Below, in pieces: positions 149-59,666 of a DNA stretch of 64,000 bases (positions within the stretch are counted from its first letter, which is position 1; each line of letters starts with the position of its first letter). A program made the position numbers and the translations under genes. This DNA comes from an uncultured Planctomycetota bacterium (lineage in GTDB: Bacteria > Planctomycetota > JAJSAM01 > JAKLKS01). The stretch covers positions 25,258 to 89,257 of the forward strand of contig CAYJMF010000004.1 of the NCBI GenBank assembly GCA_964370855.1, read 5' to 3'. The notes beneath the pieces were generated by a model. The model had not been told where the DNA came from. It worked only from the letters and a program-made list of their open reading frames with translations, and searched no databases.

Positions 149-2374
149 GTGTCCATCCACGTCTTCGGCATCCGTCACCACGGGCCCGGCTGCGCCCGGA
201 GCCTCCGGGCCGCCCTGGAGGCGCTCGCCCCCGATGTCCTCCTGATCGAGGGGCCGCCGGACGCCGCCGACGTGCTCCCCCTCGCCGCCGACCCGGCCAT
301 GCGTCCGCCGGTGGCGCTGCTCGTCTACCCGCCGGAGGCCCCGCGGAGCGCGGTCTTCTACCCCTTCGCCGAGTTCTCGCCCGAATGGCAGGCGCTGCGG
401 TTCGGTCTCGGGCGCGGGATCCCCGTCCGGTTCATGGACCTGCCCATCGCCCTCCGGCTCTCCGCTCCCCCGGAGGGGGAAGGGGGAGGCGACGGGGAGG
501 ATCCCTCCTCCCCGAGTTTCGACGCCATCGGCCGGCTGGCCGGCGCCGCGGGGTTCGAGGACCAGGAACTGTGGTGGGAGCAGGAGGTCGAGCGCCGCCG
601 CGACCCGGCGGGGCTGTTCGACGGGATCCGGGAGGCGATGCAGGCGCTCCGCGCCGAGGCCCCGCCGCTCGTTCCCTTCGAGGCGCGAAGGGAGGCCCAC
701 ATGCGCCAGACGATCCGGGCCGCGGTCAAGGAGGGCCGGGAGCGCATCGCCGTGGTCTGCGGGGCATGGCACGCCCCGGCCCTCGCGAGTCCCGGCCCCG
801 CCAGGCCGGACGCGGAGATCCTGAAGGGACCGGGCAGGACGAAGGTGGTCGCGACCTGGGTCCCCTGGACCTACGGAAGGCTCAGCTTCCGGAGCGGGTA
901 CGGGGCCGGGGTGGCATCCCCGGGCTGGTACCAGCACCTCTGGACGAACCCCGATCGCGCCGTGGTCCGCTGGGCCACGGAGGCGGCCCGGCTCCTCCGC
1001 TCCGAGGACATCCCGGCCCCCTCCGCCGGCGTCATCGAACTCGTCCGGCTGGCCGACGCCCTGGCCGCCATGCGTGGACTCCGGGATCCCGGCCTTGCCG
1101 AGATCGACGAGTCGATGGTGGCGGTCCTCTGCGCCGGCGACGCGACGCCGCTGGCCCTCGTCCGGGAGCGGCTCGAGATCGGGGATCGGCTCGGGGAGGT
1201 CCCCGCCTCCGCGCCGACGGTGCCCCTGCGCCGGGACCTCACCGCCCTCCAGAGGTCCCTGCGCCTCAAGCCGTCGCCGGAATCCCGCCCCCTCGACCTC
1301 GATCTCCGGAAGGACATCGACCGGGAGCGGAGCCGCCTCTTCCACCGCCTCGTCCTCCTCGAGGTCCCCTGGGGGGAGAGGCGGATCACGACGGGGAAGG
1401 CGGGGACCTTCCACGAGATCTGGGAACTCTGCTGGCGCCCGGAACTGGAGCCTTCGCTGGTCGCGGCCAGCCTCTGGGGGAACACCGTCGACGAGGCCGC
1501 CGGGGCGCGACTCCGCCGCCTCGCCGACGAGACCCCCGAGCTGCCGAGGCTGACGGAACTCCTCGACGTCGCCATCCTGTGCGAGGTCCCCGACGCCGTG
1601 GAGCACCTCCTCCGGCGCGTGGAGCAGGTGGCCGCGGTCGGCGCCCACGTCCTCGAACTCCTCCATGCCCTGCCCCCGCTCGCCCGGGTCGTCCGGTACG
1701 GGGATGTTAGGGCGACCCCCCGGGAGCATGTCGCCGCCGTCATCGACGGGCTCCTCGCCCGGGTCCTCGTCGGGCTCCCCGGTGCCTGCGCGTCGCTCGA
1801 CGACGAAGCCGCCGACAGGATGTCGGAAGGCCTGGCCGGCGTCACGGGGAGCCTGCTGCTCCTCGAGCGGGAGGCGGAGCGGGCCGCGTGGGTCGGGCTC
1901 CTCGACCGCCTGGCCCTGATGGAGGGGATCCACGGCCTCGTCCGCGGCCACGCCTGCCGCCTCCTCCTCGAACAGAAGGCCCTGGCCACCGAAGAACTCG
2001 GCCGCCGCTCCTCGCTGGCCCTCTCCGCCGCCGTGCCTCCGGCGGAGGCGGCCGCCTGGCTCGAGGGTCTCCTCCGCGGCAAGGGGCTCCTCCTCCTCCA
2101 GGAGAAGGGTCTCTGGACCGCGCTCGACGACTGGACGGCTTCGCTTCCCGGGGAGACCTTCGACGCGACCCTGCCCCTCGTCCGCCGGGCCTTCTCCGGC
2201 TTCTCCTCTCCCGAGCGGAGGGCCATGGGCGAGAAGGTCCGGACCCTCGGGCGCGGTCCCGGCGGGGGGGCGGCGGCCCGCGGGACCGCCGCTCCGGCCG
2301 CGGAACCCCTCGACGAGGCCCGGGCCGCCCGCGTCCTGCCCGTGCTCGCCCGCATCCTCGGAGCGAATCCATGA
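149..2374 (+). CDS. DUF5682 family protein
   Basis: GTG start. The N-terminal motif HVFGIRHHGPG..LLIEGPPDA is characteristic of DUF5682. 741 aa. The stop overlaps the start of the downstream VWA gene (ATGA). Confidence 0.6.
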   Translation: MSIHVFGIRHHGPGCARSLRAALEALAPDVLLIEGPPDAADVLPLAADPAMRPPVALLVYPPEAPRSAVFYPFAEFSPEWQALRFGLGRGIPVRFMDLPIALRLSAPPEGEGGGDGEDPSSPSFDAIGRLAGAAGFEDQELWWEQEVERRRDPAGLFDGIREAMQALRAEAPPLVPFEARREAHMRQTIRAAVKEGRERIAVVCGAWHAPALASPGPARPDAEILKGPGRTKVVATWVPWTYGRLSFRSGYGAGVASPGWYQHLWTNPDRAVVRWATEAARLLRSEDIPAPSAGVIELVRLADALAAMRGLRDPGLAEIDESMVAVLCAGDATPLALVRERLEIGDRLGEVPASAPTVPLRRDLTALQRSLRLKPSPESRPLDLDLRKDIDRERSRLFHRLVLLEVPWGERRITTGKAGTFHEIWELCWRPELEPSLVAASLWGNTVDEAAGARLRRLADETPELPRLTELLDVAILCEVPDAVEHLLRRVEQVAAVGAHVLELLHALPPLARVVRYGDVRATPREHVAAVIDGLLARVLVGLPGACASLDDEAADRMSEGLAGVTGSLLLLEREAERAAWVGLLDRLALMEGIHGLVRGHACRLLLEQKALATEELGRRSSLALSAAVPPAEAAAWLEGLLRGKGLLLLQEKGLWTALDDWTASLPGETFDATLPLVRRAFSGFSSPERRAMGEKVRTLGRGPGGGAAARGTAAPAAEPLDEARAARVLPVLARILGANP

Positions 2375-3531
2375 GCCCGGTCCGCGTGGAGGAGGAGGAG
2401 CGCCTGCGTCGCTGGCGTCTGGTCCTCGGGAAGCCCGCCGACGAATCCCTGGGCCGTCCCCTGACGGTGGTGGACCTCGGGATGGACCGCGTCCTCGACG
2501 CGCTCTACGACCGGGAGCGGGGAGGGGACCTCGGCGCCTCGGCCCCCTCGGTCGCCCGATGGCTCGGCGACATCCGGACCTACTTCCCCTCCCCGGTGGT
2601 GCGGGTCCTCCAGAAGGACGCCCTGGATCGGCTGGACCTCCGGCAGATGCTCCTCGAGCCGGAACTCCTCGGCTCGGTGGAGCCGGACATCCACCTGGTG
2701 GCCACGCTCGTCGCCCTCGGCCGGGTCATCCCCCGGAGGACCAGGGAGACCGCGCGCCAGGTGGTCCGCAAGGTCGTCCGCGATCTCGAGAGGAGGCTGG
2801 CCGAGCCGATGCGCCGTGCCGTGACGGGCGCCCTCAACCGGGCCATCCGGTCGCGTCGCCCGCGCCTGGCCGAGGTGGACTGGGACCGCACCATCCGCGC
2901 GAATCTCTCCCGCTACGACCTCGATCGCCGCCTGCTCGTGGCAGAGACGATCGTCGGCCGCGGCCGGCGGGGGACCTCCCTCCGGGACGTGATCCTCTGC
3001 GTGGATCAGAGCGGCTCCATGGCGGCCTCGGTGGTGTACGCGAGCCTCTTCGCGGCGGTCCTGGCCTCCCTCCGCTCGGTCACGACGCGGATGATCGTGT
3101 TCGACACCGCGGTGGTGGACCTCACGCCGGAGATCTCCGACCCGGTGGACCTCCTCTTCGGCACCCAGCTCGGCGGCGGGACCGACATCCACCGCGCCCT
3201 CGGCTACTGCCAGCAGGTGGTCACCCGGCCTTCGAACACGATCCTCGTCCTCGTCACCGACCTCTACGAGGGGGGGGACGCCGCCGCCATGCTCAAGCGC
3301 GCCGCGGCGCTGGTCGCGTCGGGAGTGAACGTCGTCTGCCTCCTGGCCCTGAGCGACCAGGGAACGCCCGGCTACGACACGGGGAACGCGGCCGCCTTCG
3401 CCGCCCTGGGGATTCCGACCTTCGCCTGCACCCCCGACCTCTTCCCCGACCTCATGGCGGCGGCGATCCAGCGCCGCGACCTCGCCCTGTGGGCGGCGCG
3501 CCGGGGAATCGTGACGGCGCGGGGGGAGTGA
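2371..3531 (+). CDS. VWA (von Willebrand factor A) domain-containing protein
   Basis: MIDAS-type motif LCVDQSGSM. Translationally coupled to the DUF5682 gene. Typical third member of MoxR-like ATPase/DUF5682/VWA modules. Confidence 0.7.
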   Translation: MSPVRVEEEERLRRWRLVLGKPADESLGRPLTVVDLGMDRVLDALYDRERGGDLGASAPSVARWLGDIRTYFPSPVVRVLQKDALDRLDLRQMLLEPELLGSVEPDIHLVATLVALGRVIPRRTRETARQVVRKVVRDLERRLAEPMRRAVTGALNRAIRSRRPRLAEVDWDRTIRANLSRYDLDRRLLVAETIVGRGRRGTSLRDVILCVDQSGSMAASVVYASLFAAVLASLRSVTTRMIVFDTAVVDLTPEISDPVDLLFGTQLGGGTDIHRALGYCQQVVTRPSNTILVLVTDLYEGGDAAAMLKRAAALVASGVNVVCLLALSDQGTPGYDTGNAAAFAALGIPTFACTPDLFPDLMAAAIQRRDLALWAARRGIVTARGE

Positions 3532-3715
3532 GGGGCCGCACGGCTGCACCCTGGGTCGGTGGATGCCCGGGCGCCCTGGACCCCGGGAACGGGAGAGGCC
3601 CTCGAGTGGACCGCACCCCGATCGGGGTCCCATCGGACCCGGAACTGGTAGGATCCCCTTCGCAGGACGGATTCCACGCGGCGGTCCGGGCGGCCGCCGC
3701 GGCAGCAGGGCGGCC

Positions 3716-4438
3716 ATGGCGGACACGGGGTGCGCGACGCCGGGCGGGAAGTGCGTGCTCGTCACGATCCTCGGGGCGGCCGTCATCGGCGGCCCCCTCC
3801 TCGGCCTCGGGGTGATCCTCGCGTGGTGCGCGGTGTCCGGCCGGGGAGCCTCCTGGCCCGTCGACCTGCTCGGCTCCGCGGTCCTCTGCTGCCTCGGGGC
3901 CGTGGCGCTGTTCGGATCCTCCTGCCTGATGAGGCGTGCCGCGGCGGGGCGGGCCGGGCTCGCGATCCGGGCCGGGGGCGGCAGGCGGTGGATCGTCGCC
4001 GCGGGAGTCTCCGGGGGAATCGTCCTGCCATGCGCCATCGCGCGGTGGCTCCTGCCCATGGACGCCCTCCCCGGGGCGGAGCGGTGGACGGGTCTCCTGA
4101 TCGGATGGGGGATCCTGGCCGCCCTGGCGCTCGGGAAGTGCCGCCCGGTCGGTACCGGCCGGGTGAAGGGGATCCTCGCCGGGGCGTGGATGATCGCGAT
4201 GGGCGCGGGACGGACGGGCGCCGCGGTCCTGCTGATGGATGCCATCGACGGCGTGGCGTGCCAGGCACTTCCGCGACTCGCCCCCGACGGGTGGGGGCCG
4301 GCGGGGTGGGTGCTGGGCATGACGGGAGTGATCCTGCTTGACGAGCGGGGCCTCCTCCCGCTGCACCTCCTCGGCAGCGACGGATGCGGGAGCGGCAGGC
4401 CGGGCTGCGTCCTCCGCGAGGGCGCGCGTCCCGCCTGA
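3716..4438 (+). CDS. hypothetical integral membrane protein
   Basis: ATG at 3716. Several hydrophobic helices (e.g. LVTILGAAVIGGPLLGLGVILAW). Strong GC3 codon bias. No recognisable family. Confidence 0.3.
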   Translation: MADTGCATPGGKCVLVTILGAAVIGGPLLGLGVILAWCAVSGRGASWPVDLLGSAVLCCLGAVALFGSSCLMRRAAAGRAGLAIRAGGGRRWIVAAGVSGGIVLPCAIARWLLPMDALPGAERWTGLLIGWGILAALALGKCRPVGTGRVKGILAGAWMIAMGAGRTGAAVLLMDAIDGVACQALPRLAPDGWGPAGWVLGMTGVILLDERGLLPLHLLGSDGCGSGRPGCVLREGARPA

Positions 4439-4480
4439 AGTTCCCGGGGACCCCCCGCCTCCGGAGAGGGGAATCCGGAT

Positions 4481-4520
4481 GTGACTTCTATTCGTGATGT
4501 ACATCACAGTTGGGTTGACA
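4481..4520. promoter_or_regulatory. ~40-bp promoter/operator element upstream of aprB: a palindrome followed by a TTGACA -35-like hexamer
   Basis: Sequence gtgacttctattcgtgatgtacatcacagttgggttgaca. It contains the perfect 14-bp palindrome GTGATGTACATCAC (4494-4507), i.e. GTGA-N6-TCAC. A near-identical element occurs at 60453-60490. Confidence 0.5.
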
Positions 4521-4716
4521 GCGCCTTTCGAGTTGGTACTCTTCCCCGATAAGCGCGGGGGCCGACCGGCAAGACGCCCTCCGCGCGAGGATGCAACCGG
4601 CCGCACGAGAAGGCTGCGGCAACCCGTCGCGAAGGCCCCGCCCCCGTTCCAACCGGGGCGCCGGGGCCCCGGTCGCCACCCCACGCAGGAGTCGGAAGAG
4701 CGGAACACCGTCGTCG

Positions 4717-4731
4717 ATCTATTCGTGATCG
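4717..4731. promoter_or_regulatory. partial copy (ctattcgtgatc) of the aprB/hemA operator half-site in the aprB leader
   Basis: The shared 10-mer CTATTCGTGA sits inside the short inverted repeat cgatc-N7-gatcg. Confidence 0.25.
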
Positions 4732-4791
4732 GATGCGCGAAAGCAGGGGGCCTCGAGAACGCGCCACCCCGCGCGGAAAGGAAGGGCAGGA

Positions 4792-5259
4792 ATGCCGAGC
4801 TTCGTGATCAGGGACAAGTGCGACGGCTGCAAGGCGCTCGACAAGACCGCCTGCCAGTACATCTGTCCCAACGACCTCATGGTCCTGGACAAGGCGACGT
4901 CGAAGGCCTTCAACCAGGATCCGCACATGTGCTGGGAGTGCTTCAGCTGCGTGAAGATCTGCCCGACCCAGGCCATCGAGATGCGCGGGTACGCGGACTT
5001 CACGCCCATGGGGGCCAGCGTCACCCCCATGCGCAGCTCCGAGGACATCATGTGGACCGTCCAGTTCCGGGACAAGTCCATCAAGCCGAAGCGGTTCAAG
5101 TTCCCCATCCGCCGCGGGGTGGCGGAGGGCAAGGCGCAGCCCTTCGACCTCTACCCGACCGGCGACGACAGCATCAAGAGCCCGACCCTGATGACGGAGC
5201 CGGCGGGGCTCAACAGGGAACTGGGCCCGGTGAAGTTCACCAAGGTCCCGACCCTCTGA
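4792..5259 (+). CDS. aprB: adenylylsulfate (APS) reductase beta subunit
   Basis: N-terminus MPSFVI.DKCDGCK and two ferredoxin-like Cys clusters. ~155 aa. Directly precedes aprA. Confidence 0.95.
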   Translation: MPSFVIRDKCDGCKALDKTACQYICPNDLMVLDKATSKAFNQDPHMCWECFSCVKICPTQAIEMRGYADFTPMGASVTPMRSSEDIMWTVQFRDKSIKPKRFKFPIRRGVAEGKAQPFDLYPTGDDSIKSPTLMTEPAGLNRELGPVKFTKVPTL

Positions 5260-5321: not shown

Positions 5322-7214
5322 ATGAAGGGCTTCGAGACGGTCGTGGTCGAAACCGACCTCCTGATCTGCGGGGGCGGGATGGCCGCCTGCGGCGCGGCGG
5401 TGGAAGCGTCCTACTGGGCGAAGAAGCACGGACTCAAGGTGACGGTGGTGGACAAGGCCGCCATGGACCGTTCCGGCGCCGTCGCCATGGGGCTGTCGGC
5501 CATCAACCAGTACGTGGACCTCAACAGCGGCAAGAACACGCTGAAGGACTACGTGGACTACGTGCGGAACGACCTCATGGGGATCACCCGCGAGGACGTC
5601 GTCGCGAACATCGCGAGGCACGTCGACAACACGGTGCACCTCTTCGAGAAGTGGGGCCTCCCGATCTGGAAGGACAAGGAGGGCAACTACGTCCACGAGG
5701 GGCGCTGGCAGCTGATGATCAACGGGGAGTCCTACAAGGTCATCGTGGCGGAGGCGGCGAAGAACGCCCTCGCCGAGGCCGGCGGGCAGTACTTCGAGCG
5801 CGTCTTCATCACCCACCCGCTCATGGACGGCGACAGGTGCGCGGGGGCCATCGGCTTCAGCACCCGGGAGAACAAGGTCTACGTCTTCCGGGCGAAGGCC
5901 ACCCTGGCGGCCATGGGCGGTGCCGTCCACGTGTTCAAGCCCCGCTCCACGGGCGAGGGCTTCGGCCGTTCCTGGTACCCCCCCTTCAACTCCGGGGCCA
6001 GCGCCTTCTTCACCATCCAGGCGGGCGCCGAGATGACCTGCCAGGAGGTCCGCTTCATCCCCGTGCGGTTCAAGGACGCCTACGGTCCCGTGGGTGCGTG
6101 GTTCCTGCTCTTCAAGGCCGTCGCCACCAACGCCTACGGCGGCAACTACATGAAGGAGCGCGAGGGGGAACTCGACAAGTGGGCCCCCTACGGAAGGGTC
6201 AAGCCCGCCCCGGCCAACATCCGCAACTGGCTCATGATGCTGGACGTGATGGAGGGGAAGAGCCCGATCTACATGCAGACGGCGGACGCCATCAGGGCCA
6301 TCGCCGACAAGATCCCCGACGAGAAGGAGGGGAAGAAGAAGCTGAAGGAGCTCGAGAGCGAGGCGTGGGAGGACTTCCTCGACATGACCATCTCCCAGGC
6401 CATCCTCTGGGCGGCGACCAACACCGAGCCGGAGAAGAAGCCCTCCGAGATCATGGCCTGCGATCCCTACTTCATCGGCTCCCACTCGGGCGCTTCCGGC
6501 GCCTGGGTCTCCGGCCCCGAGGACCTGCAGACCGCGGAGACGAAGTCCGAGTACTTCTGGGGCTACGAGAACATGACGACCGTGAAGGGGCTGTTCGCCG
6601 CCGGCGACGCTTCCGGCGCGTCCAGCCACAAGTTCTCCTCCGGGTCCCACACGGAGGGCCGCATCGCCGCCAAGGCCGCGATCCGGTTCGTCCTGGAGAA
6701 CGCCAAGGGCCCGAAGGTCGACGAGGGCGAGGTGGAGAAGCTGAAGGCCGAGATCCTCCGCCCGATGGTCACCTTCGAGCAGCACAAGGACCTGACGACG
6801 GATCCCGACATCAACCCGAACTACATCCGCCCGACCCAGTTCATGTACCGGCTCCAGAAGATCATGGACGAGTACGCGGGCGGCGTCTCGTCGCAGTTCA
6901 AGACCAACAACAAGCTCCTCGAGAAGGGCATGGAGCTGCTGGCCTTCCTCAAGGAGGACTCGGCGAAGCTCGGGGCCAAGAACCTCCACGAGCTCATGCG
7001 CTGCTGGGAGAACGTCCACCGCACCTTCCAGGCCGACGCCCACGTGCGCTCCATCCTGTTCCGCGAGGAGACGCGGTGGCCGGGCTACTACTTCCGGGCC
7101 GACAAGCCGACCATGGACAACAAGAACTGGCTGGCGTTCTGCAACTGCCGCTACGACCGCAAGACGGGCGAGTGGACGATGATCAAGCGCCCGGTGAAGC
7201 ACGTCCTGAACTAG
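5322..7214 (+). CDS. aprA: adenylylsulfate (APS) reductase alpha subunit (FAD flavoprotein)
   Basis: 630 aa. FAD-binding N-terminus LICGGGMAACGAA. Consistent with AprA length and context. Confidence 0.95.
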   Translation: MKGFETVVVETDLLICGGGMAACGAAVEASYWAKKHGLKVTVVDKAAMDRSGAVAMGLSAINQYVDLNSGKNTLKDYVDYVRNDLMGITREDVVANIARHVDNTVHLFEKWGLPIWKDKEGNYVHEGRWQLMINGESYKVIVAEAAKNALAEAGGQYFERVFITHPLMDGDRCAGAIGFSTRENKVYVFRAKATLAAMGGAVHVFKPRSTGEGFGRSWYPPFNSGASAFFTIQAGAEMTCQEVRFIPVRFKDAYGPVGAWFLLFKAVATNAYGGNYMKEREGELDKWAPYGRVKPAPANIRNWLMMLDVMEGKSPIYMQTADAIRAIADKIPDEKEGKKKLKELESEAWEDFLDMTISQAILWAATNTEPEKKPSEIMACDPYFIGSHSGASGAWVSGPEDLQTAETKSEYFWGYENMTTVKGLFAAGDASGASSHKFSSGSHTEGRIAAKAAIRFVLENAKGPKVDEGEVEKLKAEILRPMVTFEQHKDLTTDPDINPNYIRPTQFMYRLQKIMDEYAGGVSSQFKTNNKLLEKGMELLAFLKEDSAKLGAKNLHELMRCWENVHRTFQADAHVRSILFREETRWPGYYFRADKPTMDNKNWLAFCNCRYDRKTGEWTMIKRPVKHVLN

Positions 7215-30084: not shown

Positions 30085-31605
30085 TTGCGCCGCAATGGCG
30101 GATCGGATCCCAGGATGGAGGCGGCCCGCGGGCCGGTGGCTTCGCCCCGGTGGCACGAGGACCCCGCCGCCGCGGCGGACTTCGCCCTCCTGCACCGGCC
30201 GAGCTTCAGCGTCCGCAAGAAGATCGCGCTGAGCTTCCTCCTGTGTTTCCTGGTGATCGGGGGCGTCACCCTGGCGTCCTCCCTCATCCTGAGCCGCATC
30301 GAGGAGCGGCTGCACTTCATCGAGCTCGCGGACAACTACACCAGCCACATCCAGCAGGCGCGGCGCTACGAGAAGAACTTCCTGCTCTACGGAACGGACC
30401 TGTCCAACGCGAGGGACAACCTCCGCGCGGCCAGGGAGACCCTGCTGGGCGCGCAGCCCGAGATCGACCGGGTGGTCGGTTCCCGGACCCATCGCGAGAT
30501 GATGGGGCACCTGGATCGCTACGATCAGCTCCTCTCCCGCCTGGCAAGCGCGGAGGACAAGCAGGGGATCGAGCCCGAATTGCGGAAGCACGGCGGGGAG
30601 ATGGTGGAGGTGGCCCTGCGCGTGGCCGAGGCCGAGAGGAGAACGGTCCACGACCTGCTCCGGATCTGCAAGCTGATGCCCCTCGTGGCCATGGCGCTCC
30701 TCCTCGCCCTCATCGCCTACGTGGTCCACTTCCTGGCCCGGCAGATCCTCACGCCGCTCGGCCGGATCGTGGGGTACGCGCGGCGCATCGCGGAGGGCGA
30801 CTTCGCTCCCGTCTTCCCCACGCGGCGCTACCGGGACGAGTTCACGGACCTCGTCCTCGCCATGAACCGCATGACGAGGGAGCTCGACCGGCGGCAGGAG
30901 ATGCTCGCCTCGGCGCAGAAGCTCCGGGCCATCGGGACCCTGACCGCCGGGGTCGCCCACGAGCTCAACAACCCCATCAACAACATCTCGCTCACGGCCG
31001 AGGCGCTGCTCGAGGACGTCGGGACGCTCTCGGTCCAGGAGAGGACCGAGATGTGCCGCGACCTCCTCTCGCAGGCGGAACGCGCCCAGGGCGTCGTGCG
31101 CAACCTGCTGGATTTCTCCCGCCAGCGGGAGCCCCGCATGGTGTCGGTCGATGTCGGCCCGCTCCTCACCCGGACGTGCAAGCTGCTCTCCAACCAGGTC
31201 AGGCTGTCGCGGGCGAGGATCGAACTCGGGATCCCCGACGGCCTTCCCCCGGTCCTCGGCGACGAGCAGCAGCTCGCGCAGGTGTTCGTGAACCTCTGCC
31301 TGAACGCCCTCGAGGCCATGGACCGGCCGGGGCGGCTGGGGGTCACCGCCGAACGGGCGGCAGGGCGCCCCGGGTTCCTGCGGATCGGGGTGAGCGACAC
31401 GGGGCGGGGGATCGCCCCCGAGGTCCTCCCCTTCATCTTCGACCCGTTCTTCACGACGAAGGGGGCGGGTGGGACGGGGCTCGGGCTCTCGGTCAGCTAC
31501 GGAATCGTCGAGAAGCACGGGGGGACCATCGAGGCGGCCAGCAGGGTCGGCGAGGGGACCCGCTTCTCCGTCTACCTGCCGTTCGCCGCCGCGGCGGCTC
31601 CCTAG
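30085..31605 (+). CDS. sensor histidine kinase (TM-HAMP-HisKA-HATPase)
   Basis: H-box AGVAHELNNP. G-box FDPFFTTKGAGGTGLGL. One TM segment near the N-terminus. Confidence 0.8.
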   Translation: MRRNGGSDPRMEAARGPVASPRWHEDPAAAADFALLHRPSFSVRKKIALSFLLCFLVIGGVTLASSLILSRIEERLHFIELADNYTSHIQQARRYEKNFLLYGTDLSNARDNLRAARETLLGAQPEIDRVVGSRTHREMMGHLDRYDQLLSRLASAEDKQGIEPELRKHGGEMVEVALRVAEAERRTVHDLLRICKLMPLVAMALLLALIAYVVHFLARQILTPLGRIVGYARRIAEGDFAPVFPTRRYRDEFTDLVLAMNRMTRELDRRQEMLASAQKLRAIGTLTAGVAHELNNPINNISLTAEALLEDVGTLSVQERTEMCRDLLSQAERAQGVVRNLLDFSRQREPRMVSVDVGPLLTRTCKLLSNQVRLSRARIELGIPDGLPPVLGDEQQLAQVFVNLCLNALEAMDRPGRLGVTAERAAGRPGFLRIGVSDTGRGIAPEVLPFIFDPFFTTKGAGGTGLGLSVSYGIVEKHGGTIEAASRVGEGTRFSVYLPFAAAAAP

Positions 31606-34118
31606 GCGAACCGGGCGAAGTCCTCGGCGAGGAACCTCTCGGCGCACTCCTTCACGTCCCCGGCGTCCCCGAGGTTCATGTCCAGCTGGCGGGCGCACGC
31701 CAGGAGGAGCCCGAGCCGCAGGAGCCCCTGCTCGCAGTCCTGCCGGGGGACGGTCCGGAGCCACGCGTTGACGAGGTCACCCCGCCGATCCACGGTGAAT
31801 CCGTTCGCGCCCAGGACGGCTTCGATGAACCGCGCCCGCAGATCGCGTCGTTCCCTCGCCGCGCCTCCCCCCTGGAAACGGAAGCTCACGTAGTTGCTTT
31901 CCGTCACCTCGCCGACGACAGCGTCGATCATCGCGTAGTGGTAGGCCATGCGGGCGTTGAGGTTGAGGTAGTCGAGGGCGACGATCAGGTAGTTGCGGTC
32001 CCCCAGCCTGCGCATGCCCCGGTCGCGGGAGCCCAGGGAACCCGCCACGACCGACAGGAAGCCGGCCGGCGACACCTCGCGGCGCCCGGCCCAGGTCACC
32101 CGCGGGTCGGCGATCCCCTTCCACAGGGCGCGGAAGGGGATGCAGGTCATGGACTCCGGCGAGAGTCGACCACGCCGGCCGGGCGGATCGGAAACGCCCC
32201 CCCCCAGGTCGAGGACCTCCAGGTCGAGCGGGATCCCCGAGGCGAGGTGCCGGGCGGCGCGCCCTCCCCCGGTCGCGTAGCGATCGCCGAGGCGGAACAT
32301 CGCGTCGAGGGATCGCTCGTGCACCACCCGGACGAGATCGTGGATCGAGGAGCAGCCCTCCGCCCGGAAGGCCGCATCGGAAGGGTCGATGAGGTCGAGG
32401 CGCAGGATCCGATCCCACGGGAACCCCGGGGGCCGGCGCTCCGCCGGGGGGCGGCGCCGCCGGTTGCGGAACCCGGGCCAGGGAGTTCCGGAGTACACCT
32501 CGCCGCGGTTCCCGTCGACACCGACGACCTCGCCGGCCGCGAGGAGGGTCAGCGCATCCCGGGCATCGTAGACGGCGGGCACCTCGGCCTGGCGGACCAG
32601 GGCCGCGGCGTGGCTCAGGGGGCTCCCGGTTTCCGCGACGAGTCCCGCCACCCGGCCGAGGGCCCGGGCGAGCTCGGGCGTCGCCTGTCGGACGACGAGC
32701 ACGGATCCTTCGGGGGCTTCTCCCGCCTGCGCGGGGTTCGGGGCGAGGAAAACGGGGCCCACCGCCCGTCCGGGGGACAGGGGTCGACCACGCAGCTTCG
32801 CGGGGAGCGGCATTCCCGGATGGGCCCGGGCCGCGCGGTGCGGCAGGCGGAGCGGCCGCGCCTGGAGCACGACCAGCCGCCCCCCCTCGTCCATGGCCCA
32901 TTCGATGTCCTGGGCGCAGCCGAAGTGGCGTTCGATGTCGAGCCCCACCCGGGCGAGGCGCTCGATGTCCCCGTCCTCCAGGGCGGCGGTCTCGCGGTGG
33001 CGCTCCGGAATCGCCCTCCGGACCACGCCCGGCAGGTCCGGTTCCTCGACGAGTTCCGAGCACTTGCGGGCCACACGGCGTTCGAGGATCTCCCCCGGGG
33101 GGCGGCGCGAGAGGACGAACAGGTCGGCGTTCGCGGTGCCGCCGACGACATCGGCTCCCAGCCCGAAGGCCCCCGTGAACAGCATGCTGTTCCCCGCGGG
33201 GTCCTGGGGGTCGCGGGTGTAGAGCACCCCGGAAGCGCGCGCCGTGACCATGGGGAGGAAGAGGACGGCCATGGGGGTCTCGAACCCGGAGAGTCCCGCC
33301 CCTCGCCTGTACGCGAGGGCGCGGTCGGAGTAGCCGCTCGCGACGACGGCAAGGTAGGCGGAGGCGAGGCCGTCCCTGGGCACCCCGAGGCGGGTCTCGA
33401 ACTGGCCCGCGAAGGACAGCGGCCCGTCCTCCCCCACGGCGCTGGACCTCACCGCGAAGCGGCGGCCTTCGGGATGACGGTCCGCCCCCTCCCGGATGGC
33501 GGCCGCGATTGCCCCGGGCAATCGCGCGCCCTCCATCCTCCGGCGAAGCGACAGCGCCTCCCCGGCGAGCGCGGCCTCGTCCACGAGGGCCGCCGCGAGG
33601 AGCGCGCGCTGGCGGTCCGGGAGCCCGATCTCGCGCGCGAGAAGCCGATAGGATGCCGTGGTCGCCACGAAGCCCGGGGGCACGAGATCGGGGAGGATCC
33701 CGCGGATCTCGCCGAGGCGGGCGGCCTTCCCGCCGACCTGGTCGGGGTCGAGGGCCTCCGGGTCGTCGAGCCGGACGGCCAGGCGCCGTGCCGGACCGGC
33801 CGCGGCGGCGTCGAGTTCGGACCGGACCGCGGTCTCGATCCGATGATGGGCCGCGAAGAGCGCATCCTCGCGTCCCCCGGTCAGTTCGTTCAGGTCCTGG
33901 ACCAGTTCGAGGCTCAGCGCCAGGATCCGGAGGATGCGCTCGCGGATCGCGGTGTCGAAGGGGGCCTTCGTCCCGAGGTCGGCCTCGAGATCGGCGAACA
34001 GGGCGAGGAGCTCGCTGTTCCGGGCCAGGAGACGGCGAAAGGACGCGTACCTCCGGCGGAACTCGGGAACGTCGGCGCTCCCGGCGTGGAGCAGGCGGCG
34101 GAACCAGTCGAGGGTCAT
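31602..34118 (-). CDS. PpsA-like PEP-utilising dikinase paralogue 1 (ATP-grasp + swivelling phospho-His domain + non-canonical C-terminal domain)
   Basis: Motifs GGKAARLGE, AVRSSAVGEDG..SFAGQF, QDIEWA. His-domain motif GSPLSHAAALVRQAEVPAV. The C-terminal ~300 aa lack the canonical PEP-utilising TIM-barrel motifs. Confidence 0.8.
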   Translation of the reverse strand: MTLDWFRRLLHAGSADVPEFRRRYASFRRLLARNSELLALFADLEADLGTKAPFDTAIRERILRILALSLELVQDLNELTGGREDALFAAHHRIETAVRSELDAAAAGPARRLAVRLDDPEALDPDQVGGKAARLGEIRGILPDLVPPGFVATTASYRLLAREIGLPDRQRALLAAALVDEAALAGEALSLRRRMEGARLPGAIAAAIREGADRHPEGRRFAVRSSAVGEDGPLSFAGQFETRLGVPRDGLASAYLAVVASGYSDRALAYRRGAGLSGFETPMAVLFLPMVTARASGVLYTRDPQDPAGNSMLFTGAFGLGADVVGGTANADLFVLSRRPPGEILERRVARKCSELVEEPDLPGVVRRAIPERHRETAALEDGDIERLARVGLDIERHFGCAQDIEWAMDEGGRLVVLQARPLRLPHRAARAHPGMPLPAKLRGRPLSPGRAVGPVFLAPNPAQAGEAPEGSVLVVRQATPELARALGRVAGLVAETGSPLSHAAALVRQAEVPAVYDARDALTLLAAGEVVGVDGNRGEVYSGTPWPGFRNRRRRPPAERRPPGFPWDRILRLDLIDPSDAAFRAEGCSSIHDLVRVVHERSLDAMFRLGDRYATGGGRAARHLASGIPLDLEVLDLGGGVSDPPGRRGRLSPESMTCIPFRALWKGIADPRVTWAGRREVSPAGFLSVVAGSLGSRDRGMRRLGDRNYLIVALDYLNLNARMAYHYAMIDAVVGEVTESNYVSFRFQGGGAARERRDLRARFIEAVLGANGFTVDRRGDLVNAWLRTVPRQDCEQGLLRLGLLLACARQLDMNLGDAGDVKECAERFLAEDFARFA

Positions 34119-34552: not shown

Positions 34553-37045
34553 TCACGCGAGGGTGTAGTCGCCCCGGAGGAAGGCGTCGGCGTAGTGCCT
34601 GGACGCCTCCTCGGTGTGCATGAGCGCGTCGATCTGCCTCGTGAAGCCGATGAGCCGCCCGATGGTCTCGAGGCGGACCTCCGTCTCCGCACGGGGCAGC
34701 TTCCTGAGGCGGCCGACCACGAGGTCGCCGCTCTGCCGGGCCGCGAAGTCGAGGTGCTCGAGGATCTCGCGGACCAGGGTCGCGCGCCGGGCGCGGCGTT
34801 CCGGGTCGGAGGCGCCGCCCACGAAGCGGAAGTACACGTGGTTCGCCTCGCGCTCGTCGCAGAGGTAGGCGTCCACCATGGTGTAGTGGTACCCGAGGTT
34901 GAGGCTCAGGTTGACGTAGGAGTCCGAGACGACGGCCAGGTTGCGGCCGCTGTTCTGGCCGGCGGTCCGCGACGTGGCGCTCGCCAGGAAGGTCCTGAAG
35001 CCGACGGGAACCGGCCGGGTGCTCCACACCCCGGGAGCCGTCAACCCGGCCCAGAGCAGCCGCATGGGCGCCGACCGGACCGCGTCCGGGCGGACGGGCG
35101 CTCCGGCGGGGAGGGTCGCCACCCCCGGGTGCAGTCCGCCGCCGACGTCGATGATCCTCAGGTTCAGGGGGATCTCCGCCTCCAGCTGCCGTGCCGTCTC
35201 GGCCCCCGACACCCCGCCGCCCGCGATCAGCGCGATGATCTCCTCGACGGCCTTCTCGTGGGAGAACCGGATCACGTCGTGGAGGGTCCGGCACCGGTCG
35301 GGCCGGAACTGGTCCGACTGCGGATCGACGAGCTCGAGGGGGGTGATCCGCCTGAGGATCCTCCTCAGGAGGCGGTACTCGGGCGCGTCCTCGATCCCCG
35401 GCTCCTCCAGGAGCTGGTGGAGGAGGAGCTCCTCGACGCGTCCCCGGTAGACGACGATGTCGTCCGCGTCGATCGTGACTTCCATTCCGGCGGGGAGCCG
35501 GGAGGTGGCGTCGCCGCAGTCGACGATCGCGGGTACGCGGAACTCGCGGGCGAGCGCCGCCATGTGGCCCGTGGGAGCCCCGATGTCGGTGACGATGGCC
35601 GCGATCCGGGGCATGACGCGCACGAAGTGCGGGGAGGAGCGCCGTGCCACCAGCACCGCGCCCGGGGGAACGGCGTCGAGGTTCCCGTCGCCCTGGAGGA
35701 TGTGCACGCGGCCGACGGCCACCCCGCGGCAGGCGATGTGGCCCCTGCCCTCGAGGAGGATCTCACGGGCGCGGAGCACCTCGGGGAGGTTCCGGGGGGC
35801 TCCCCGCCGGGTGACCTTCAGGCGCCTCGCCTGGATGACGAAGAGCGTTCCGTCCGCGTCCCGCGCCCACTCGATGTCCTGCGGCTGCTTGAAGTACCGC
35901 TCGATCCTCAGCGCCATGGCGGCGAGCGCCGTCGCTTCGTCCCGGGCGAGCCCGGGAACCACCGTCACGGGCGCCGGAGCGCCCGTCGCCTCCGGGCCGC
36001 CCGCGGACGGACGGAGGGTCGCGTCGTGGGGCGGCTCCCGCGACAGCGTGTAGGTGGAGAAGCTCCGGATGCCCGCCACGGCGCGATCCGCGAGACCCGG
36101 GGTGGCCCCGAGCTGCATGAGTCCGCTTTCCGGACGCTCGGGCTCGACGGTGTAGAGCACGCCCGCCGTCGTGGCTTCGACCATGCGCATGCAGGCCACG
36201 GCCATGAGCCCGAAGGCGGAGGCGCCGCAGGCGCCGCGGTAGGAGCACGCCTCCGGGGAGTAGAGGCTCGCGAGGACCTCCCGGTAGGCGTCGACCACCC
36301 CCTCGACCGGGACATGGAGCACCGTCCGGTACTGGCCGGCGAAGGAGAGGTCGTCGTCCTCCCCGAGGGCGCTGGACCGTACCGCGAGGCGCAGGGGCCG
36401 GCCGCCGGCATCCATGGCGCGAAGGGCCTTCCCGATGGCGCGCCGGACGTCCCCGGGCACGGCGGCCGTCCGGAGCCTCCGGCAGACGTCCTCCATGGCA
36501 TGGACGTCCCCCCGGGCCGTACGCTCGATGGACTCCTCGATGACGGGTTCGAGCCGGTTCTCCTCGAGGATGCGGATGTAGGCGTGGGTCGTGATCGTGA
36601 AGCCGTCCGGAATGGGAATCTGCAGGCGGCTGGAAATCTCGCCGAGGTGCGCGCTCTTGCCTCCCACGAGGTCCGCGTTGCCTTCGTCGATCCGGCTGAA
36701 GGGCAGGCAGTACTCCGTGCGCGGGACGACCGGCCGGCCGGCGACGTCCCCGAGCGCGTCCGCGCGCAGCCGGTCCACCAGCAGGTAGAGCGCGGCGTAC
36801 CTCTGGTCGGCGATGCTGTTGAGGTCGTAGACGACCCTGTCCCCGAGGTCGAAGAGCTGGTCGACGATGGCCGCCACGTAGTGGCGGTCGAAGACGTACT
36901 CGCCGCTCTCCTTCTCGGCGGCGTCGGCGAGGATCTGGAGGATGCGGGTGTTGTTGTCGAGGAGGTTGCGGAAGCGGGCGAAGAGCAGCCTGAACGGCAC
37001 GTGCGGCCGCCCTCCGAACCCGAGCCACTTCCCGAGCCGCGACAT
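34553..37045 (-). CDS. PpsA-like PEP-utilising dikinase paralogue 2
   Basis: Internal start MSRLGKW.. (ATG 37045-37043). Motifs GGKSAHLGE, AVRSSALGEDD.SFAGQY, QDIEWA, GAPTGHMAALAREFRVPAIV. Confidence 0.8.
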   Translation of the reverse strand: MSRLGKWLGFGGRPHVPFRLLFARFRNLLDNNTRILQILADAAEKESGEYVFDRHYVAAIVDQLFDLGDRVVYDLNSIADQRYAALYLLVDRLRADALGDVAGRPVVPRTEYCLPFSRIDEGNADLVGGKSAHLGEISSRLQIPIPDGFTITTHAYIRILEENRLEPVIEESIERTARGDVHAMEDVCRRLRTAAVPGDVRRAIGKALRAMDAGGRPLRLAVRSSALGEDDDLSFAGQYRTVLHVPVEGVVDAYREVLASLYSPEACSYRGACGASAFGLMAVACMRMVEATTAGVLYTVEPERPESGLMQLGATPGLADRAVAGIRSFSTYTLSREPPHDATLRPSAGGPEATGAPAPVTVVPGLARDEATALAAMALRIERYFKQPQDIEWARDADGTLFVIQARRLKVTRRGAPRNLPEVLRAREILLEGRGHIACRGVAVGRVHILQGDGNLDAVPPGAVLVARRSSPHFVRVMPRIAAIVTDIGAPTGHMAALAREFRVPAIVDCGDATSRLPAGMEVTIDADDIVVYRGRVEELLLHQLLEEPGIEDAPEYRLLRRILRRITPLELVDPQSDQFRPDRCRTLHDVIRFSHEKAVEEIIALIAGGGVSGAETARQLEAEIPLNLRIIDVGGGLHPGVATLPAGAPVRPDAVRSAPMRLLWAGLTAPGVWSTRPVPVGFRTFLASATSRTAGQNSGRNLAVVSDSYVNLSLNLGYHYTMVDAYLCDEREANHVYFRFVGGASDPERRARRATLVREILEHLDFAARQSGDLVVGRLRKLPRAETEVRLETIGRLIGFTRQIDALMHTEEASRHYADAFLRGDYTLA

Positions 37046-37146
37046 TGCCTTGATTGGACCCCCGTCGGTTCCTCCCGGGCCGGTGATTCCCCGGGCCGCG
37101 GTCCCCCCTGCGGCGCTCCGCGGGGGCGTACCGGGCGACCGTTCCG

Positions 37147-37899
37147 CTAGTGGCCGCCTCCCTTCTTGAAGACCATCCCGATGAGGAGCCCGACGGTGAG
37201 GGCGATCCCGACCGACATCGCGCCGTACAGGGTGCTCCGGTGGAACGCCATGTGCGAGATGAACCGGGGGAATCCCACGAGTTCGACCCGGAGCCGCGCG
37301 GCCTCCTTTCCCACGACCCTTCCCCCGGCCACCTGGATGACGTCGACCGCGTAGTCCCCCGGGGGGGCGACGTCGGGCCATGGAATCGCGGCCTCGAAGG
37401 CCGGGTGGTCGCCCTGCTCGAGGCGGACGGCCCCTTCGAAGGCCCCGAAGGCGCCCTGCGAACGCTTGAGGGCGAGGTACTCGCGCCGGATGAGGGCCGG
37501 GTCGGGACCCGCGGGTGCGAAGGTCGCGGCGTTCAGGACGGCCTCGACGTCGAGGAGGTTCTCCGCGATCTCCCCCGGGGGCAGGAGTCCCGCCGCGGGC
37601 CGGCTGCAGGCGGCGAGCCACAGGCTCGGGGCCCCGGAGACCGACAGGGAGCCGACGTTGGCCCAGAAGGGACCCACGCGCCCCTTCCGCTGGTACTTCT
37701 CCTCGACCGCGGCTCCCGTGATCGTGACGAAGACGTGGGCCCCGGGCACGGCGTCGCCCCGCACGCGGATCATGGCGCCCTTGAAGGTCGCGTCGATGCG
37801 GACGGGGTCGGGCTCCACGGCGAGGTCCGCGAACGCGGTGCCCGCTCCCATGGCCCCGGCGAGGAGCGCGAGGGGGATCGCGGCCTTCATGGTGCGCAT
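37147..37899 (-). CDS. secreted protein with N-terminal signal peptide and C-terminal membrane anchor; accessory to the adjacent TauE/SafE gene
   Basis: 250 aa. Signal-like N-terminus MRTMKAAIPLALLAGAMGAG. C-terminal TM ends ..KKGGGH. Start overlaps the TauE stop. Confidence 0.5.
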   Translation of the reverse strand: MRTMKAAIPLALLAGAMGAGTAFADLAVEPDPVRIDATFKGAMIRVRGDAVPGAHVFVTITGAAVEEKYQRKGRVGPFWANVGSLSVSGAPSLWLAACSRPAAGLLPPGEIAENLLDVEAVLNAATFAPAGPDPALIRREYLALKRSQGAFGAFEGAVRLEQGDHPAFEAAIPWPDVAPPGDYAVDVIQVAGGRVVGKEAARLRVELVGFPRFISHMAFHRSTLYGAMSVGIALTVGLLIGMVFKKGGGH

Positions 37900-38816
37900 C
37901 AATGTCCTCCGGCGGGGGAGAGCAGCAGGGGAGGGGCCGCCACCATGGCGTAGACCATCCTCGCGCAGACGGCGAGCACGATGCAGGCGAGGATGATCCG
38001 GAGCTGCTCGCCGCGCAGGCGTCGCGCGACGCGGGCTCCGAACTGCGCACCGACCGCGGACCCGACGGCGAGGACGATCGCCAGGGTGAAGTCGACGGTG
38101 TGGTTCACGGATGCCTGCATGAAGGTCACCCAGCTGGAGGTGAAGAGGATCTGGAACAGATCCGTTCCGACGGCGACGTGCATCGGCATGCGGAGCATGT
38201 AGACCATCGCCGGGATCATGATGAACCCGCCCCCGACGCCCATGATGGCCGCGAGCACCCCCACGAGGGCGCAGAGGGCGATGGGGACGAACACCGACTG
38301 GCGGATGCCGGACTTGGGGAAGCTCGCCTGCAGCGGGAGGCGCTCGAGCAGCGTGGCGAGCCGCGAGGGCCCCCGCCCCCCTGCGGCTTCCTTCCGGGAC
38401 CCGCGGAGCGTCCCGAGGCTCTCGAGGAACATGTAGCCGCCGATGAGGCCGAGGACGACGACGTAGGTCGCCATGATGAGGAAGTCCGCGTTTCCCATCC
38501 GGCGCAGCACCCGGATGATCTGCACGCCGACGGCTCCGCCCGCGACCCCGCCGAGCAGCATCAGGCATCCCAGCTTGTAGTCGACGTTCCCCATCCGCGC
38601 ATGCGCGAAGGTGCCCGACGCGGAGGCGGCGACGATCTGGCAGGAATCCGTCGCGGCGGCCACCGTCGGGGGTATCCCGACCGTCATGAGGAGGGGCGTC
38701 ATCAGGAACCCTCCTCCGACCCCGAACATGCCCGAGAGGAAGCCGACCAGCACGCCGAGGCCGAGGGGGAGGAGGAGGTAGATGCATTTTCCGGCGATGG
38801 GAAGGAAGATGTACAT
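37899..38816 (-). CDS. TauE/SafE (TSUP, DUF81) family permease, paralogue 1
   Basis: Duplicated GVGGGF(L/I)M motif, the DUF81 signature. ~305 aa, 8 TM. Confidence 0.8.
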   Translation of the reverse strand: MYIFLPIAGKCIYLLLPLGLGVLVGFLSGMFGVGGGFLMTPLLMTVGIPPTVAAATDSCQIVAASASGTFAHARMGNVDYKLGCLMLLGGVAGGAVGVQIIRVLRRMGNADFLIMATYVVVLGLIGGYMFLESLGTLRGSRKEAAGGRGPSRLATLLERLPLQASFPKSGIRQSVFVPIALCALVGVLAAIMGVGGGFIMIPAMVYMLRMPMHVAVGTDLFQILFTSSWVTFMQASVNHTVDFTLAIVLAVGSAVGAQFGARVARRLRGEQLRIILACIVLAVCARMVYAMVAAPPLLLSPAGGH

Positions 38817-40186: not shown

Positions 40187-40204
40187 CGTGATTTTTCTCA
40201 CAAT
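40187..40204. promoter_or_regulatory. conserved motif cGTGATTTTTCTCACAATt (GTGA-N6-TCAC) upstream of the RR/TauE/HK operon
   Basis: One of three copies of GTGATTT(T)CT(G/C)CACAAT in this window (also at 52044 and 59526). Confidence 0.45.
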
Positions 40205-40249: not shown

Positions 40250-40750
40250 GTGGTCCGGCCTCCAGCGGGTGCGGCATCCCATGCTCTTGCCGGTGTCGAG
40301 CCTTCGGTCCTCGACGGGATCGTGACGGACCCCGCCGTGCCCCCGGCCGCGCGCGTCCGCGTCCTTGTCATCGACGACGAGGCGGACTTCGCGACGGCGA
40401 CCGCCGAACGGCTGGTCCGCCGGGGCTTCCACGCGGTCCCCGTCTTCGACGGCCGCGCCGGCCTGGATCGGATCGCGGCCGGCCCCTTCGACGCGGTCCT
40501 GCTCGATCTCCGGATGCCGGGGATGGACGGTCTGGCGGTCCTCCGGGAGATCCGTCGCGTCGATCCCCACCTCCAGGTCGTGGTGCTGACCGGGCACGGA
40601 ACGGTGGCTTCCGGGATCGAGGGGATGCAGATCGGCGCCGCGGACTTCCTCCGGAAGCCCGCGGACTTCGATGGTCTGGTGACGGCGGTGCAGGCGGCCG
40701 CGGAGTCCACCCGCGCCCGCAGGGAGGCCGCCCGGGGAGGTGCCCGATGA
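40250..40750 (+). CDS. single-domain response regulator (CheY-like receiver)
   Basis: RVLVIDDEADF..LLDLRMPGMDG..DFLRKP. GTG start at 40250. True start uncertain. Confidence 0.75.
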   Translation: MVRPPAGAASHALAGVEPSVLDGIVTDPAVPPAARVRVLVIDDEADFATATAERLVRRGFHAVPVFDGRAGLDRIAAGPFDAVLLDLRMPGMDGLAVLREIRRVDPHLQVVVLTGHGTVASGIEGMQIGAADFLRKPADFDGLVTAVQAAAESTRARREAARGGAR

Positions 40751-44549: not shown

Positions 44550-44714
44550 AAGCGGTTTCACAGGCCCCCGCGGCCCCGCCGGGGGCGGCGGGGGGCCGTC
44601 TGCAGCGTCGGCCCTCCTCGCCTACCCTCCTGGGTATGTCTTCGTCGGGCCTCCTTGCATCCTGCCCCCCGGCGCCCCCGTCGCGACCACGGGGGCTTGT
44701 GAAACCGCTTCTAG
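44546..44714. repeat. 17-bp perfect inverted repeat (agaagcggtttcaca / tgtgaaaccgcttct) flanking a 132-bp GC-rich spacer between convergent genes
   Basis: ctagaagcggtttcacag at 44546-44563 and cttgtgaaaccgcttctag at 44696-44714. The inner GC hairpins may act as a bidirectional terminator. Confidence 0.5.
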
Positions 44715-51884: not shown

Positions 51885-52043
51885 CCGGGCTCCGCAGGGC
51901 CGCCGCGCGACCCGCGCGGGGTGATCCGCGCGGGCCGCTCGCGGCGCCCGTCAACCGGCCGCTAGATCCCCGATCCTATTCGGTCCCGGGGACTTCCGCG
52001 GCTCCTTCCCCCCTGCCCCGGGCGACGGCCCGTGACCAGCAAT

Positions 52044-52061
52044 CGTGATTTTCTGCACAAT
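52044..52061. promoter_or_regulatory. conserved motif cGTGATTTTCTGCACAATa in the divergent intergenic region between the PEP-like operon and the CMPK-like/BON gene
   Basis: Second copy of the GTGATTT(T)CT(G/C)CACAAT motif. 424-bp intergenic region. Confidence 0.45.
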
Positions 52062-59659: not shown

Positions 59660-59666
59660 CCTCCTC

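Follow-up and report, generated by a model that had tools for sequence, protein, structure and literature searches.

What is the role of a nearly identical A/T-rich element of about 40 bp that lies at two distant places in the genome of an uncultured planctomycete, once upstream of the adenylylsulfate (APS) reductase gene aprB and once between rex and hemA, and which regulator would recognize it? The window, by which we mean the whole 64,000-nucleotide stretch of contig CAYJMF010000004.1 that was analysed, has a guanine-plus-cytosine (GC) content of 68-75% throughout, in an organism of 72% GC, and two A/T-rich stretches stand out against this background: copy 1, on the aprB side, at 4481-4520 (GTGACTTCTATTCGTGATGTACATCACAGTTGGGTTGACA), and copy 2, on the hemA side, at 60452-60491 (GTGACTCCTATTCGTGACAAACATCACGAATAAGTTGACT). 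We predict that both are sigma-70-type promoters fused to an operator of Rex, and assign this reading a probability of roughly 0.7. When the 40-mer was slid without gaps over both strands of the window, the two copies agreed at 30 of 40 positions; the next-best scores, 22/40 at 52032 and 21/40 at 40175, both belong to further sites of the same motif, and unrelated window sequence reached at most 21/40 and 50 block-shuffled windows at most 25/40. With 30 identities against a shuffle maximum of 25, the shared element of about 40 bp proposed in a sequence-only reading of this DNA is real; its hemA-side copy, placed there at 60453-60490, is present, with a start that had been set one base too high. 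The core GTGA-N6-TCAC occurs five times in the window against 0.51 expected (none of 100 shuffles reached five), and CTATTCGTGA, allowing one mismatch, four times against 0.64 expected, at 4488, 4719, 60459 and, on the minus strand, 60475. The two modules and their genes are composed as follows:

4481-4485, plus strand: upstream GTGAC half-site of the aprB module, beginning 13 bp before the GTGA of the box
4489-4512 (core 4494-4507), plus strand: distal Rex-type box of aprB, TATTC-GTGATGTACATCAC-AGTTG, 29.2 bits with a matrix from other genomes, at -298 from the aprB ATG
4515-4542, plus strand: putative aprBA promoter, -35 TTGACA at 4515-4520, 16-bp spacer, -10 TACTCT at 4537-4542
4719-4740, plus strand: proximal degenerate box in the aprB leader, CTATTC-GTGATCGGATGCGC-GA, GTGA at -67 from the ATG, 7.7 bits
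4792-14530, plus strand: predicted target operon with aprB, aprA, two small genes, qmoA, qmoB, qmoC and sat (Pfam and gene calls)
59667-60455, plus strand: rex, candidate regulator (Pfam Put_DNA-bind_N and CoA_binding)
60452-60456, plus strand: upstream GTGAC half-site of the hemA module, containing the rex stop codon TGA (60453-60455)
60460-60483 (core 60465-60478), plus strand: Rex-type box of hemA, TATTCGTGA-CAAACA-TCACGAATA, the best matrix match at 32.2 bits
60486-60514, plus strand: predicted hemA promoter, TTGACT-17-TATCCT, fitting 9 of 12 positions in a consensus scan against 0.0 such matches expected
60560-61843, plus strand: hemA, glutamyl-tRNA reductase, predicted target gene (Pfam GlutR_N, Shikimate_DH and GlutR_dimer; gene call)

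Both copies are built to one plan, in which a GTGAC half-site is followed after 8 bp by the inverted repeat (T)ATTCGTGA-N6-TCAC(GAAT), after a further 7 nt by a -35 TTGAC and, 16-17 bp on, by a -10 of the form TAnnCT. The symmetry that had been read from the letters bears inspection: GTGATGTACATCAC in the aprB copy is a perfect palindrome of 14 bp, and the palindrome of 24 bp in the hemA copy has 9-bp arms that match perfectly. The -35-like hexamers TTGACA and TTGACT (60486-60491) each begin 7 nt past TCAC as described, and a third half-copy, ctattcgtgatc, does lie in the aprB leader at 4719-4730, 231 bp from the distal site. Pfam searches bore out the flanking genes, with aprB at 4792-5259, aprA at 5322-7214, rex ending at 60455 and hemA starting at 60560; according to the gene calls of the source assembly (ENA ERZ13693047, NODE_244), the order downstream of the box is aprB-aprA-two small genes-qmoA-qmoB-qmoC-sat-OsmC-like-dsrC. 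We also asked whether GTGACT could serve as the -35 of a promoter further upstream whose -10 would fall within the box, and rejected this arrangement, as no -10 is consistent between the two copies.

Which parts of the modules are kept can be seen in the nearest relatives. The locus with the closest AprB (L167, 97% identical) and that with the closest Rex (L164, 80%) come from the same Joint Genome Institute (JGI) sample. When 4400-4800 is aligned with L167, the upstream genes are unalignable and conservation begins at GTGAC, continuing through a near-invariant stretch, GTGACTyCTATTCGTGATGTACATCACrGwTGGGTTGAC, in which the distal box is nearly unchanged, with one substitution each at 4508 and 4510. 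A promoter, TTGACG-16-TATCCT, lies at the same place in L167, the 16-bp spacer having diverged, and the proximal degenerate site, ATTCGTGATCnGnTGCGCG, is kept in weak form in both. On the other side, the sequence downstream of rex reads ATTCGTGATGAACATCACGAAT-agt-TTGACT-17-TAGGCT in L164 and GTGAC-N8-GTGATGCAAATCACGGAT-gct-TTGACT-17-TAGTCT in L165 (Rex 77% identical), in each case followed by hemA, and the arrangement rex-box-TTGACT-17-TAnnCT-hemA is thus common to the window and to both relatives. The GTGAC half-site keeps its offset from the box in L165, although rex ends 13 nt earlier there, and is replaced by GCGAC in L164. The nearest-relative alignments keep only box, -35 and -10, which upholds the interpretation of the element as a promoter with its operator. 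The window, L165 and the more distant L166 (Rex 66% identical) have in common a box upstream of rex, GTGC-N6-TCACAGTATAG. In L166 the order is rex, three boxes, aprB, and this order therefore looks ancestral, with rex having moved beside hemA in the window lineage.

The link between the motif and rex extends across phyla. A search for AprB in 185,579 species genomes (GTDB) gave 80 loci of at most 85% identity, mostly from Gemmatimonadota and Planctomycetota, with some from Acidobacteriota and Desulfobacter, and 78 of these had enough upstream sequence for analysis. The exact core GTGA-N6-TCAC is present within 700 bp upstream of aprB in 38 of the 78, and an exact or one-mismatch site with an A/T-rich spacer in 73. 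These sites fall into a proximal class at -63 to -68 from the ATG (e.g. ttGCGTGAAAATTTTCACAA, close to a textbook Rex box) and a distal class at -115 to -540 (often GTGACAAAAATCAC); the third half-copy of the window stands at the proximal-class position, which it shares with full palindromic boxes in 17 relatives. TTGAC follows 8 nt past the box in 26 sites of the relatives, and the layout of box and then -35 is therefore common to several phyla. In a tblastn search with the window Rex, 52/78 loci proved to have a rex gene (47-61% identical) next to aprB, on its upstream side and in the same orientation. Of these loci, 46 offered enough sequence to place the boxes: all 46 have one between rex and aprB, and 24 also have one in the 300 bp upstream of rex; site density is 4.8/kb in the rex-aprB gap and 2.5/kb upstream of rex, against 0.01/kb in the coding sequences of rex and aprBA. 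Since rex adjoins aprB in two thirds of the loci and boxes lie on both sides of it, rex is the transcription-factor gene that travels with the motif. In relatives, core matches some 2.4 kb past the aprB start (about +2380 to +2410) were set aside as a coding look-alike, GTGAAGTA(C/T)(A/C)TCAC: they encode the AprA C-terminal sequence VKY(I/L)T and are therefore coding sequence, not an operator.

Where aprB has no rex upstream, the neighbours are a ferrochelatase-GlutR_N fusion, cobA-hemD, a divergent TauE gene, a CBS-domain protein and others. The tetrapyrrole or divergent TauE neighbours at such loci (L005 3435-5636, L077 3640-5322, and on the minus strand L058 4510-5559 and L068 4379-5452) echo the hemA and TauE genes that stand behind boxes in the window. 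In some relatives, e.g. L016, L025 and L038, long T-runs such as gttttttttgtttttgttttttgc directly precede the proximal box at -67; such runs might serve as an UP-like element or as an attenuator in the leader.

The hemA side is conserved over a much shorter range. Of 80 loci obtained by searching metagenomes with HemA, not one has rex or a box ahead of hemA, and in the two closest (L082, 79% identical, and L083, 60%) another gene directly precedes hemA, the gap being too short for a promoter region. Conservation of the element upstream of orthologues, which the sequence-only reading had proposed as a check, was thus found at aprB (the 73 loci above and L167) and, at hemA, only in L164 and L165; the box being absent from the 80 distant hemA loci, the predicted Rex control of hemA would be limited to the immediate lineage. 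The gene that precedes hemA in L082 (positions 1-290) ends about 12 nt before it and has an H+-translocating pyrophosphatase-like C-terminus, recognized by eye from the motif GDTVGDPFKDTAGPS; hppA is a direct Rex target in Streptomyces avermitilis (PMC5355995).

The element is not confined to a pair. A 22-bp weight matrix was built, without any window sequence, from 47 exact-core sites located within 600 bp upstream of aprB in other genomes; the resulting consensus, (A/T)(T/A)n(C/T)GTGA-wwwwww-TCAC(G/A)n(A/T)(T/A), has C (60%) or T (37%) before GTGA. It matches the 64-kb window five times with 21-32 bits, the next-best match having 13 bits, and 0.005 matches of at least 20 bits are expected in shuffled windows. 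All five sites are intergenic and none is in coding DNA. A scan with a matrix made from the two copies had been suggested, with random scatter as the alternative outcome; with the matrix from relatives used in its place, five promoter-side sites and no scattered ones were found within the window. The element accordingly is part of a wider regulon with five sites here, of which the following are additional to the two copies:

40188-40201, strand unassigned: box GTGATTTTTCTCAC, 30.1 bits, upstream of a response-regulator gene (40250-40750) and a TauE gene (41101-42147)
52032-52036 and 52045-52058, strand unassigned: GTGAC half-site and box GTGATTTTCTGCAC, 23.3 bits
59527-59540, strand unassigned: box GTGCAAGAAATCAC, 21.0 bits, in the gap that separates rex from the divergent dsrMK-like operon (56898-59419, minus strand)

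Three of the five sites (4494, 40188 and 60465) have a perfect core; those at 52045 and 59527 deviate from it at one position. At 4481, 52032 and 60452 a GTGAC precedes the GTGA of the box by exactly 13 bp, an offset that is kept in L167 and L165, and a -35-like (T)TGAC or GAC follows at a near-constant distance past the box at 4515, 40209, 52069 and 60486. Past the box at 40188-40201 the sequence reads cTGACg, an 18-bp spacer and TAGCAT. The box at 52045 sits between a PPDK-like gene on the minus strand (49335-51884) and cytidylate-kinase-like, TauE and PPDK-like genes that run from 52309 on the plus strand. At 59527 the minus strand has TATACT directly before the box; the dsrMK-like pair left of rex is also found in the gene calls of the source contig, and rex in the window is flanked by boxes on both sides (59527 and 60465). 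Matches at 47433, inside a response-regulator gene, and at 53168, at a TauE start codon, have at most 8 bits and were taken as chance.

The candidate regulator itself is on its sequence a genuine member of the Rex family: it matches solved Rex structures with E = 8e-34 and keeps the GxGxxG NAD(H) motif and the recognition helix. Its start was placed at 59571 by the gene caller, and the alignment of orthologue N-termini suggests GTG at 59667. This GTG lies about 7 nt past a promoter-like TTGACA(59631)-17-TAGCCT, which suggests a leaderless or near-leaderless rex mRNA. In this lineage (59571-59800; P0001-P0003) the protein has an N-terminal extension of about 40 residues, rich in Arg, Gly and Pro, before the canonical start RLxRLVLDRLIRY; the extension is common to the 80% and 77% identical orthologues and absent from the 66% identical and more distant ones, and such a basic tail might add DNA contacts. 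A palindrome at the -35 box of rex (59624, GTGTGTCTTGACAC, 6.9 bits) was dropped from consideration, as it is not kept in L164 or L165.

Rex proteins bind sites resembling TTGTGAA-N4-TTCACAA when the NADH/NAD+ ratio is low and are released by NADH (PMC7531388, PMC5355995). The closest known system is the Rex regulon of Desulfovibrio (D. vulgaris DVU_0916; D. alaskensis G20), with sites at sat, apsBA, qmoABCD and dsrMKJOP; PMC4045070 and PMC7531388 describe a predicted regulon of sat, apsAB, qmoABCD, dsrMKJOP and dsrABD, and derepression of sat and qmo in a rex mutant. Here as there, a repeat of the GTGA-N6-TCAC type, often with one imperfect half-site, lies upstream of dissimilatory sulfate-reduction genes that include APS reductase, a Rex-family protein is present and a response to NADH is predicted. 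The differences are that the consensus is (A/T)TyCGTGA here and TTGTGAA in Desulfovibrio, that the box lies upstream of the -35 here and over the -10 at Desulfovibrio sat/apsAB (PMC545781), that aprBA, qmoABC and sat form one same-strand cluster past the box, and that in related non-Desulfovibrio lineages rex is physically linked to aprBA. The hemA side has its counterpart in rex-hemACD of S. coelicolor and S. avermitilis, where in a high-GC genome rex is likewise directly upstream of hemA and haem-precursor synthesis is under Rex control (PMC5355995), as we predict for the window. In Streptomyces, however, the operator lies upstream of rex, spans the -35 to the -10, and hemA is co-transcribed with rex, whereas here a separate predicted operator and promoter lie between the two genes, starting at the rex stop codon. 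S. avermitilis Rex represses rex-hemAC1DB, leaves footprints of 23-29 nt, accepts TCGTGAA and TTCACGA variants and uses half-site operators beside full ones (PMC5355995), and the C ahead of GTGA and the GTGAC half-site in the window thereby have a precedent.

On this basis we propose that a dimer of the Rex encoded at 59667-60455 would bind the inverted repeat (T)ATTCGTGA-N6-TCACGAAT(A), a presumable lineage variant of the TTGTGAA-N4-TTCACAA operator, and that the adjacent GTGAC half-site may supply extra contacts. At low NADH/NAD+ the bound protein would hold the promoter just downstream off; with a rise of NADH it would leave the DNA, and aprBA-qmoABC-sat, which serve the electron-consuming activation and reduction of sulfate, would be switched on. 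The same release would turn on hemA, for the supply of sirohaem and haem precursors, together with at least three other operons of the window.

Several observations weigh against this proposal. Set against TTGTGAA-N4-TTCACAA, both main copies fit at 10 of the 14 specified positions, having C and not T before GTGA and neither A nor T at positions 7 and 12, and the core is indistinguishable from CRP-type TGTGA-N6-TCACA. In the D. alaskensis rex mutant the expression of apsAB was unchanged (PMC4045070). Many relatives (L002-L081) carry not palindromes but 2-5 asymmetric GTGAnAAAAATCTC boxes, spaced at 31-32, 42 or 67-68 bp and nearly all oriented as aprB. The motif scan takes in 64 kb of the genome only, and the -10 of aprB was not called by the consensus scan because it fits at only three of six positions. 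Finally, the predicted box centre lies at about -49.5, with the box ending 7 nt before the -35, a position that also suits an activator. Rex operators mapped by footprinting as a rule extend over the -35, the -10 or the start site. As the box is further upstream than most of these, we are surer of which protein binds than of the direction and mode of its control. Upstream of rex the GTGAnAAAAATCTC boxes of relatives recur with the same pair spacing, and their constant TCTC half and directional A-tract are unlike what would be predicted for a simple palindromic dimer site.

Dimers of the CRP/FNR family recognize TGTGA-N6-TCACA and usually activate from about -41 to -61, so that the box might instead be the operator of an HcpR-like member of that family. 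Its core is that of the CRP consensus and identical to that of the HcpR sites (TTGTGA-N6-TCACAA) of Desulfovibrio, sites of this class at Desulfovibrio sat and apsAB were first given to HcpR (PMC545781), and a predicted centre at -49.5, just upstream of the -35, looks more like the place of an activator than of a repressor, although it suits neither class I (-61.5) nor class II (-41.5) activation. We nevertheless regard this assignment as quite unlikely. No CRP/FNR protein (cNMP-binding or Crp-HTH domain) was found among about 40 open reading frames scanned in the window or in 10 aprB-adjacent reading frames sampled at rex-less loci, whereas rex accompanies the boxes at 52/78 loci; moreover, the Desulfovibrio sites were later reassigned to Rex, and deletion of a Rex site derepresses sat, as reported in PMC7531388 and PMC4045070. 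The core thus fits either family, as had been noted from the letters, and it is the linkage to rex that favours Rex. Granting Rex as the binder, it could still act otherwise than by covering the promoter: from about -50, and with the GTGAC half-site and the leader site at -67 from the ATG taking part, it might block an upstream activator or the C-terminal domain of the RNA polymerase alpha subunit (alpha-CTD), loop the DNA between the sites 231 bp apart, or even activate. The gap of 7 nt between box and -35 (8 nt to TTGAC in the 26 sites of relatives), the paired or tandem boxes at fixed spacings of 31-32 and 67-68 bp, the proximal degenerate site kept weak in the window and L167, and documented binding of Rex to half-sites (PMC5355995) would all agree with such a mode. 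All characterized Rex proteins, on the other hand, repress by occlusion or roadblock, and footprints of 23-29 nt would reach the edge of the -35 (PMC5355995); the start sites, too, are only predicted, so that the value of -49.5 could be wrong. On balance we consider it unlikely that Rex works without simple occlusion here.

Two further explanations were weighed. The copies could be alike by descent only, as a promoter fragment duplicated when rex and aprBA were separated, or as a dispersed repeat, with no present role. Their likeness does exceed a minimal operator of 16-18 bp, taking in GTGACTyC and TTGAC, and if the order rex-boxes-aprB is ancestral (L166 and 52 loci) both could stem from one module. 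Yet the half-sites are kept while spacer and flanks diverge, the motif recurs at three further promoters that are otherwise dissimilar, and every copy is intergenic; common descent and present function are in any case compatible, and descent alone is a highly improbable account. Equally far-fetched in our view is a role of the inverted repeat in RNA, be it as a leader structure or, at the 3' end of the rex mRNA, as a terminator or stabilizing hairpin. The hemA copy, directly past the rex stop codon, does fold at -16.3 kcal/mol (z = -5.25), but the aprB copy folds no better than shuffled sequence (z = +0.66), neither copy has a T-run or is called as a terminator, and Rfam gave no match. In the 47 exact sites the GTGA and TCAC arms are invariant around a variable, non-complementary, A/T-rich spacer, with no compensatory changes. 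At 60445-60500 the hemA copy can form, with GTGACT and AGTTGAC, an extended RNA hairpin past the rex stop, and might in addition give the rex mRNA a 3' structure, one that lacks a U-tract.

The Rex operator with its promoter remains the reading we prefer, and parts of it are already known from other organisms: Rex sites at APS-reductase genes, the linkage of rex to hemA, and Rex as a repressor at promoters of energy-metabolism genes. What is new is modest. The rex-operator-aprBA linkage is widespread in metagenome-assembled genomes of Gemmatimonadota, Planctomycetota and Acidobacteriota, and no mention of it was found in the literature searched, which is weak evidence of novelty; to this may be added the lineage-specific (T)ATTCGTGA form of the predicted operator with its extra half-site, and its fixed position just upstream of the predicted -35. 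The finding offers a testable regulatory link from NADH/NAD+ to sulfate activation and reduction (aprBA-qmoABC-sat) and to tetrapyrrole precursors (hemA) in a little-studied, uncultured sulfur-cycling lineage. If Rex control also holds in the other groups, the expression of dissimilatory sulfur genes should track redox state, and this would bear on the reading of metatranscriptomes from these widespread 'non-classical' groups. A bolder extension, which we hold to be doubtful, is a specialized Rex subclass with a tail of about 40 residues and a tripartite operator (GTGAC, 8 bp and the 24-bp TATTCGTGA-N6-TCACGAATA) just upstream of the -35. In related phyla this would be matched by phased arrays of asymmetric GTGAnAAAAATCTC boxes (31-32/67-68 bp), and sulfate reduction and tetrapyrrole supply would both be controlled by a higher-order Rex-DNA assembly, whether looping, co-operative binding or a block of the alpha-CTD, in place of simple occlusion; rex, operator and aprBA would then form a mobile, self-regulated cassette that has spread sulfate-reduction genes over Gemmatimonadota, Planctomycetota and Acidobacteriota.

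Some features of the surroundings deserve mention. Rfam gave no match to the GC-rich aprB leader of about 240 nt; just past the predicted start site this leader contains a block of 23 nt (AAGCGCGGGGGCCGACCGGCAAG, 4552-4574) that is identical in L167 amid an otherwise diverged leader. Upstream of aprBA, at 149-3700 of the window and beyond (L001 1324-8740), lies a conserved cluster of SWIM, DUF5691, AAA_5 (MoxR-like), DUF5682 and VWA genes, which bears no relation to the operator. Other genes of the window include dsrK/O/P-like genes, dsrAB, a dsrL-like gene, dsrN and cobA-hemD, as well as repeated PPDK-like, TauE, cytidylate-kinase-like and two-component modules. The repetition of modules is unusual between 29184 and 56917, where there are five paralogues with PPDK_N/PEP-utiliser domains (31602-34118, 34553-38050, 44711-47272 and 49335-51884 on the minus strand, 54308-56917 on the plus strand), four TauE genes, two cytidylate-kinase-like genes, three sensor kinases and two receiver-only response regulators; a Rex-type box stands ahead of two of these modules.

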